From the NCBI RefSeq assembly GCF_003334785.1, contig NZ_QOWV01000004.1: DNA of 64,000 nucleotides; one strand, given 5' to 3'. A program made the position numbers and the translations under genes. Position 1 is the stretch's first letter. Every line of letters starts with the position of its first letter. Below, piece by piece: positions 48,353-49,248 of the stretch. This stretch comes from Escherichia coli. Lineage in GTDB: Bacteria > Pseudomonadota > Gammaproteobacteria > Enterobacterales > Enterobacteriaceae. The notes below the pieces were generated by a model that saw only the letters and a list, made by a program, of their open reading frames with translations, was not told the DNA's origin and ran no database searches.

Positions 48353-48448
48353 GTTTAAAGCCCCCACGTCCATTAATAATGCATTTGCATTACCTTAGTT
48401 CAAGCTTATAATTTGAGCAGAAAACAGGCTGTAAAAGGACAGTGAATC

Positions 48449-48784
48449 ATGCCCGCTAATGCTCGCTCTCACGCTGTACTGACCACTGAATCAAAGGTCA
48501 CGATACGCGGACAAACAACTATCCCCGCGCCAGTGCGTGAGGCCTTAAAACTGAAGCCAGGCCAGGACAGCATTCATTACGAAATTCTGCCTGGTGGGCA
48601 AGTATTTATGTGCCGACTGGGAGATGAACAGGAGGATCATACTATGAATGCATTTTTGCGTTTTCTGGATGCAGATATCCAGAACAACCCGCAAAAAACT
48701 CGTCCATTCAACATTCAACAAGGAAAGAAACTTGTCGCTGGCATGGACGTCAACATTGATGATGAGATTGGCGACGACGAATAA
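48449..48784 (+). CDS. prlF: PrlF (SohA) antitoxin, 111 aa, AbrB/SpoVT-type swapped-hairpin DNA-binding domain
   Basis: N-terminal motif TIRGQTTIPAPVREALKL; AAAAGGA Shine-Dalgarno. Confidence 0.85.
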   Translation: MPANARSHAVLTTESKVTIRGQTTIPAPVREALKLKPGQDSIHYEILPGGQVFMCRLGDEQEDHTMNAFLRFLDADIQNNPQKTRPFNIQQGKKLVAGMDVNIDDEIGDDE

Positions 48785-49248
48785 TGGATTTTCCACAAAG
48801 GGTTAATGGTTGGGCGCTATATGCTCATCCCTGTTTTCAGGAAACCTACGACGCTTTAGTTGCCGAAGTCGAGACATTAAAGGGAAAAGATCCTGAAAAT
48901 TATCAGAGAAAAGCCGCCACAAAGTTATTGGCGGTAGTCCATAAAGTGATTGAGGAGCATATCACGGTCAATCCATCATCACCGGCATTCCGTCATGGCA
49001 AGTCGTTAGGCTCTGGGAAAAATAAAGACTGGTCACGGGTAAAATTTGGTGCTGGTCGTTATCGTCTCTTCTTTCGTTATAGTGAAAAAGAGAAAGTCAT
49101 CATTCTGGGATGGATGAACGATGAAAACACTCTGCGCACCTACGGTAAAAAAACAGATGCCTATACCGTATTCAGCAAAATGTTAAAAAGAGGACATCCT
49201 CCTGCCGACTGGGAAACCCTCACCCGAGAAACAGAAGAAACCCATTGA
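48784..49248 (+). CDS. yhaV: YhaV toxin, 154 aa, RelE-superfamily ribonuclease
   Basis: ATG overlaps the prlF stop (TAATG); antitoxin-first order. Confidence 0.85.
   Translation: MDFPQRVNGWALYAHPCFQETYDALVAEVETLKGKDPENYQRKAATKLLAVVHKVIEEHITVNPSSPAFRHGKSLGSGKNKDWSRVKFGAGRYRLFFRYSEKEKVIILGWMNDENTLRTYGKKTDAYTVFSKMLKRGHPPADWETLTRETEETH

Follow-up and report, generated by a model that had tools for sequence, protein, structure and literature searches.

Two co-oriented genes lie between the gar and aga catabolic blocks of the 64-kb stretch of Escherichia coli DNA analysed here (the window), and a palindrome precedes them. The question raised by this locus is whether the genes form an intact toxin-antitoxin module and whether the palindrome is the operator through which that module represses itself. 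The initial annotation had named the pair prlF-yhaV, placed it between the two blocks and described it as an antitoxin-first pair with a 1-nt overlap, and all of this was borne out. The two genes are open reading frames on the same strand within 48301-49302, with garD and agaR adjoining (Table 1); at the TAATG junction, the final A of the prlF TAA stop codon is also the A of the yhaV ATG. Of 5426 complete E. coli genomes searched with megablast, 5168 contain the 1-kb stretch, at 99% DNA identity or more in 3515 of them and at 100% in some annotated chromosomes. Wherever it was found, the genes are annotated as "type II toxin-antitoxin system antitoxin PrlF" and "ribonuclease toxin YhaV", with garD and agaR on either side. 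The locus, genes and neighbors are identical to those of E. coli K-12 PrlF(SohA)-YhaV (Schmidt et al. 2007, J Mol Biol 372:894), and no difference from that system was detectable in the window. The module, its complex and the binding of the promoter palindrome are already known, having been characterized experimentally since 2007.

The pairing of the two genes was followed in 80 yhaV loci fetched from one-genome-per-species collections, including those of Escherichia albertii, Pseudocitrobacter, Cedecea, Marinobacterium, Pseudoalteromonas, many Alphaproteobacteria and the cyanobacteria Calothrix and Synechococcus. A PrlF homologue (30-96% identity) was found directly upstream of yhaV in all of the 79 loci that had enough upstream sequence to examine, and at most junctions the genes were between -4 and +5 nt from each other, i.e., overlapping or no more than 5 nt apart. 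Adjacent, co-oriented and tightly coupled genes whose pairing is kept across genomes are what is found in type II toxin-antitoxin systems. YhaV-family toxins were also found on 328 plasmids of a plasmid collection, 175 of them predicted to be conjugative. These homologues, mostly less than 60% identical to E. coli YhaV, belong mostly to Alphaproteobacteria and Enterobacterales and are abundant in Roseobacter-group bacteria, Pantoea, Acetobacter and Bradyrhizobium; the PrlF-YhaV family is mobile. Neither protein was matched by the PADLOC defense-system models, and no Rfam family was matched within 48300-49300.

The second type II module that had been noted in the window is higB-higA, located between rlmG and fadH. 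The accompanying remark that both modules sit at operon boundaries is true, though uninformative. HigB-HigA is likewise encoded on the chromosome, and its toxin also belongs to the RelE superfamily; unlike prlF-yhaV, it has the toxin gene first and a helix-turn-helix antitoxin, and the sequences are unrelated.

Table 1. Positions of the prlF-yhaV locus, its signals and other features of the window
Feature	Position	Strand	Description
naRNA4 (CssrE, REP-derived), two matches	2861-2942, 2961-3042	-	Rfam; upstream of fadH
higA	5288-5704	-	Antitoxin; overlaps higB by 4 nt
higB	5701-6015	-	Toxin; first gene of the pair
rnpB	41663-42039	-	RNase P RNA gene; Rfam
garD	46729-48300	+	Upstream neighbor
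garD intrinsic terminator hairpin	48323-48348	+	Perfect 10-bp stem AAAACATGGC/GCCATGTTTT, then T run
Operator palindrome TAATGCA-TT-TGCATTA (very likely)	48377-48392	.	Perfect 7-nt arms; only family-consensus match in the window
Predicted sigma-70 -35, TTTGCA	48384-48389	+	Consensus scan; inside the right arm of the palindrome
Predicted -10, TATAAT	48407-48412	+	Consensus scan
Shine-Dalgarno-like AAGGA	48435-48439	+	9 nt 5' of the prlF ATG; read from the sequence
prlF (sohA)	48449-48784	+	Antitoxin, 111 aa; AbrB/MazE-type swapped-hairpin N-terminal DNA-binding domain, acidic C-terminal tail
(TTCAACA)x2 tandem repeat	48707-48720	+	Inside prlF; sequence and TRF; the heptamer tract of locus L084 is at 468-509
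yhaV	48784-49248	+	Toxin, 154 aa; predicted RelE/ParE fold; ribosome-dependent mRNA endonuclease according to the literature
yhaV/agaR intergenic stem-loop	49260-49296	+	8-bp G+C-rich stem ATGCCCGC/GCGGGCAT, then CCUUUCUC
agaR	49303-50112	-	Downstream, convergent with yhaV; kbaZ next

The palindrome upstream of prlF

The initial annotation had pointed to the palindrome aatgca-tt-tgcatt as a candidate PrlF-YhaV operator. The palindrome is present, although the position given for it (48379-48392) was one base off; those 14 nt occupy 48378-48391. It also extends further than was first read, with 7-nt arms (TAATGCA/TGCATTA) in E. coli and 8-nt arms in the family consensus. By itself, the palindrome is weak evidence, within the chance expectation for an A+T-rich intergenic region. 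There are 33 perfect inverted repeats with arms of at least 7 nt and a spacer of 0-4 nt in the window, and when the 148-nt intergenic region was dinucleotide-shuffled 5000 times, 338 of the shuffled versions (6.8%) held at least one. Its significance comes instead from its conservation across species.

The upstream regions of prlF in the window and in the 79 loci, a sample that spans Gammaproteobacteria, Alphaproteobacteria and cyanobacteria, were compared. In every one of the 80 regions an 18-bp palindrome precedes prlF by no more than 150 nt, at a distance of about 10-70 nt in the fetched loci; apart from this palindrome, the regions share no similarity. The family consensus is GTAA[T/G]G[C/A]A-NN-T[G/T]C[C/A]TTAC (GTAAKGMA-NN-TKCMTTAC), and the 18-mer of the window, ATAATGCATTTGCATTAC (48376-48393), has one mismatch to it when written as GTAATGCA-NN-TGCATTAC. 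No mismatches were found in 24 regions, one in 33, two in 20 and three in the remaining 3. These counts are somewhat circular, as the consensus was built from the same sequences; the contrast with the background is not, and in the remaining 462,438 positions of the same loci there was no match at up to two mismatches. In this comparative footprint, each of the 80 cases has the palindrome on its promoter and none has it elsewhere, the pattern of an operator of autoregulation. Since the same palindrome precedes the gene pair in distantly related bacteria, it is very likely that 48377-48392 is the true operator of prlF-yhaV. The operator proposal agrees with the account in PMC7781912, which, where it cites Schmidt et al. 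2007, describes binding of the PrlF-YhaV complex, a PrlF2-YhaV4 hexamer, to a palindrome in the prlF promoter. Two adjacent palindromes, GCAATGCAAACGCATTGC followed by GCAATGCATTTGCATTGC, were observed upstream of prlF in Enterobacteriaceae bacterium UBA7338 (locus L006, about 2530-2600), an arrangement that fits the cooperative binding of two hexamers described in the literature.

The position of the palindrome relative to the promoter differs among lineages. In 63 of the 80 cases, a TTGACA -35 hexamer precedes the palindrome at a distance of exactly 2 nt, so that the operator occupies the spacer and ends in a TAC that starts the -10 hexamer. E. coli shares a different layout with other Enterobacterales and Pseudoalteromonas, in which the operator's right arm (TTTGCA or TTGCAT) is itself the predicted -35, with a -10 about 17 nt downstream, and the promoter appears to have been rebuilt there with a new -10. 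The best sigma-70 match of the consensus scan in the window, TTTGCA-17-TATAAT, agrees with the consensus at 10 of 12 positions. A promoter of the ancestral type, with TACCTT at the 3' end of the operator as its -10, was also considered for E. coli and was rejected because its -35, GTCCAT, matches at only 1 of 6 positions, compared to 10 of 12 for the former. As the operator always sits on the promoter, a bound repressor would be expected to occlude RNA polymerase in either layout.

The layout in E. coli bears on another reading of the palindrome, namely that it is a by-product of A+T-rich promoter sequence around the -35 and that the real operator lies elsewhere in 48360-48448. The shuffling result, the 33 repeats of the window and the right arm that doubles as the predicted -35 all speak for it. 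However, the 18-bp palindrome is kept in 80 of 80 regions of Gammaproteobacteria, Alphaproteobacteria and cyanobacteria with unrelated flanks and has no match elsewhere in 462 kb of loci. Furthermore, most lineages have the palindrome 2 nt downstream of a separate TTGACA, apart from the -35, and its core co-varies with PrlF residues 20 and 27. We therefore consider this reading very improbable, and the palindrome is treated below as the operator.

The co-variation concerns two types of operator core, TGCA and GGAA/TTCC. In all 15 loci with symmetric TGCA/TGCA cores, PrlF has Arg at position 20 and no Lys at position 27, and Lys occupies both positions in each of the 65 loci where one or both half-sites are of the GGAA type. 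Residues 20 and 27 may form a simple recognition code for the operators of AbrB-type antitoxins; the code is only a possible lead because the core split is confounded with two protein clades, i.e., with phylogeny.

Hairpins lie on both sides of the module. The intrinsic terminator of garD is the upstream boundary of the module and lies outside it. Downstream, the stem-loop between yhaV and agaR has a predicted folding energy of -21.2 kcal/mol (z -2.15). It was not called by a strict terminator scan, and it probably terminates the operon.

The PrlF and YhaV proteins

PrlF matches Pfam PF15937 over model positions 1-99 of 99 (E 7.2e-42) and the PrlF equivalog NCBIfam NF007429 at 170 bits, above the curated cut-off of 125, which makes it a full-length member of the PrlF family of antitoxins. 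Its predicted fold matches AbrB/SpoVT/MazE-type domains only; the N-terminus is of this type, as had been suggested, and corresponds to a swapped-hairpin DNA-binding domain. YhaV matches Pfam PF11663 over model positions 1-137 of 138 (E 8.9e-54), again a full-length match, and carries all 27 residues that are invariant in its family. An imperfect 17-nt tandem repeat within yhaV (48961-48996; 2.1 copies, 78% matches, TRF score 44) is probably due to chance. Sequence searches of the PDB with PrlF, YhaV and the YhaV family profile returned no relative with a solved structure; the sole match, ThreeFoil (E 0.0023), was discarded as a repeat artefact.

YhaV had been called RelE-like from the start, and its predicted fold upholds this. 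The fold matches toxins of the RelE/ParE superfamily only and has the beta-alpha-alpha-beta-beta-beta-alpha arrangement of these toxins. With hhalign, the YhaV family could not be aligned significantly or sensibly to E. coli RelE, nor to a set of 24 aligned RelE sequences; the latter set was shallow (at least 67% identity), which limits the comparison. As the profile-profile comparisons were silent, the link to RelE comes from the predicted fold together with a weak pairwise alignment. The Smith-Waterman score of YhaV against RelE was 44, equalled by 7 of 2000 shuffles, and is marginally significant. In this weak alignment, R85 and K87 (both invariant) and R94 (near-invariant) of YhaV face K52, K54 and R61 of RelE with identical spacing in strands beta2-beta3, K123 faces R81, and a Phe, F130, rather than a Tyr, faces Y87; two invariant Tyr residues, Y120 and Y127, are near F130. 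Judged by these alignments, the five catalytic positions of RelE do not all appear clearly conserved in YhaV, and the mapping of catalytic residues is tentative because the profile comparison with RelE gave no signal.

YhaV is known to be a ribosome-dependent mRNA endonuclease that favors a G just downstream of the cut, it groups with RelE and HigB, and the K-12 protein is toxic unless PrlF is co-expressed (PMC8546651; PMC11980606). Growth inhibition by the toxin and its neutralization by direct binding of the antitoxin are likewise reported for K-12 PrlF-YhaV (PMC8546651; PMC7781912). YhaV is longer than E. coli RelE (154 vs. 95 aa); its helical N-terminal part is extended, and a further helix is present at the C-terminus. 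No profile-level similarity to RelE was found, and RelB is a ribbon-helix-helix rather than an AbrB-type protein. In comparison with E. coli MazE-MazF, the toxin is unrelated: MazF has the CcdB/MazF fold and is ribosome-independent, while YhaV has the RelE fold and is ribosome-dependent. The combination of a MazE-type antitoxin with a RelE-type toxin in PrlF-YhaV has already been noted in the literature.

The proposed scheme and its alternatives

We regard it as nearly certain that the locus is the chromosomal E. coli type II toxin-antitoxin operon prlF(sohA)-yhaV and that it works according to the following scheme. The predicted sigma-70 promoter would drive a bicistronic mRNA from which prlF and yhaV would be translated in a coupled fashion through the TAATG overlap. 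YhaV has a predicted RelE/ParE fold and, according to published experiments, cleaves mRNA on the ribosome, preferably just before a G, which leads to growth arrest. PrlF would dimerize through its AbrB/MazE-type swapped-hairpin N-terminal domain, and its C-terminal region, by analogy with other type II antitoxins, would bind YhaV. The palindrome would be bound by the PrlF dimer and, with higher affinity, by the PrlF-YhaV complex, and because it overlaps the -35 hexamer, the operon would shut off its own transcription. Again by analogy, the operon would be derepressed and some YhaV set free when PrlF is lost or when a frameshift deprives it of the C-terminal tail. The identity of the genes, their family membership, folds and coupling, and the conservation of the operator were computed here; toxicity, neutralization, stoichiometry of the complex and DNA binding were taken from the literature; and the exact promoter hexamers and the catalytic residues are those that we infer.

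Natural and laboratory losses of the system suggest a different possibility, that the module of the window is an inactive remnant in which toxin or antitoxin is non-functional and which is kept by inertia. Chemostats select loss-of-function yhaV mutations and IS insertions (PMC5960147), and IS1 insertions, deletions and frameshifted prlF genes occur in natural strains. The copy in the window, however, has both open reading frames intact and all family-invariant residues in place, it is the common E. coli allele (the 3515 genomes at 99% or more), and K-12 YhaV was toxic and rescued by PrlF in published experiments (PMC8546651). An inactive remnant is slightly less probable still than a palindrome that is a by-product of the promoter. 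The position between the gar and aga blocks could also mean that the palindrome is a site for a neighboring catabolic regulator (AgaR or a gar regulator) coupling the module to sugar-acid and amino-sugar metabolism, but this is the least credible reading, extremely improbable, since the palindrome also precedes prlF-yhaV in genomes and on plasmids where neither gar nor aga genes are nearby, and is the sole match in the window, where the aga and gar promoters have none.

The heptamer tract of prlF and its natural variants

The prlF gene of the window is the common wild-type allele, with two TTCAACA units. Addition of one unit produces the classical prlF1 allele, and the tract is a slippage hotspot for frameshifts of the prlF1 type; the one-unit duplication recurs in laboratory evolution, where it increases expression of the operon, activates Lon and alters antibiotic susceptibility (PMC7686311; PMC12107188). 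Expanded tracts are also found in nature. Three or more units are present in about 18 of the 5156 complete E. coli genomes carrying the locus; the count is exactly three in eleven genomes and 6, 7, 9, 11, 12, 14 or 19 in the rest. The six-unit allele was confirmed by reading its sequence. In Shigella sonnei, between 7 and about 30 units were found in many protein clusters, and the tract may coincide with a 7-bp VNTR used in the typing of this organism. According to the protein clusters, natural expansions are both in-frame and out-of-frame, in S. sonnei especially, and those that are out-of-frame replace the acidic C-terminal tail of PrlF.

Two further variants of the locus involve IS1. In E. 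coli MS 196-1 (locus L085), the element interrupts prlF near its 3' end, immediately downstream of the heptamer repeat, and yhaV is intact. In E. coli EC23HZZ201 (locus L083), an IS1-associated deletion has taken away prlF, yhaV and the entire aga cluster; the garD terminator is immediately followed by IS1, and yraI is the next gene.

It is conceivable, though rather doubtful, that the TTCAACA tract acts as a natural slipped-strand contingency switch; this proposal was weighed jointly with the related one that residues 20 and 27 of PrlF constitute a recognition code (Arg and non-Lys with TGCA, Lys and Lys with GGAA). If the tract were such a switch, gain or loss of 7 bp would reversibly toggle PrlF between full-length and tail-less forms. 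Wild populations, especially those of S. sonnei, would then experience derepression of the operon and the prlF1 phenotypes, i.e., Lon activation and beta-lactam heteroresistance.

The outcome of this analysis is a clean annotation of the locus that includes the operator, promoter, coupling, terminator and mutational hotspot. Comparison across species places the operator at 48377-48392 with high confidence and yields a family consensus of 18 bp in which two core types can be told apart. The mutational hotspot is of practical relevance, as the recurrent 7-bp duplication alters susceptibility to antibiotics and natural isolates carry expanded alleles.
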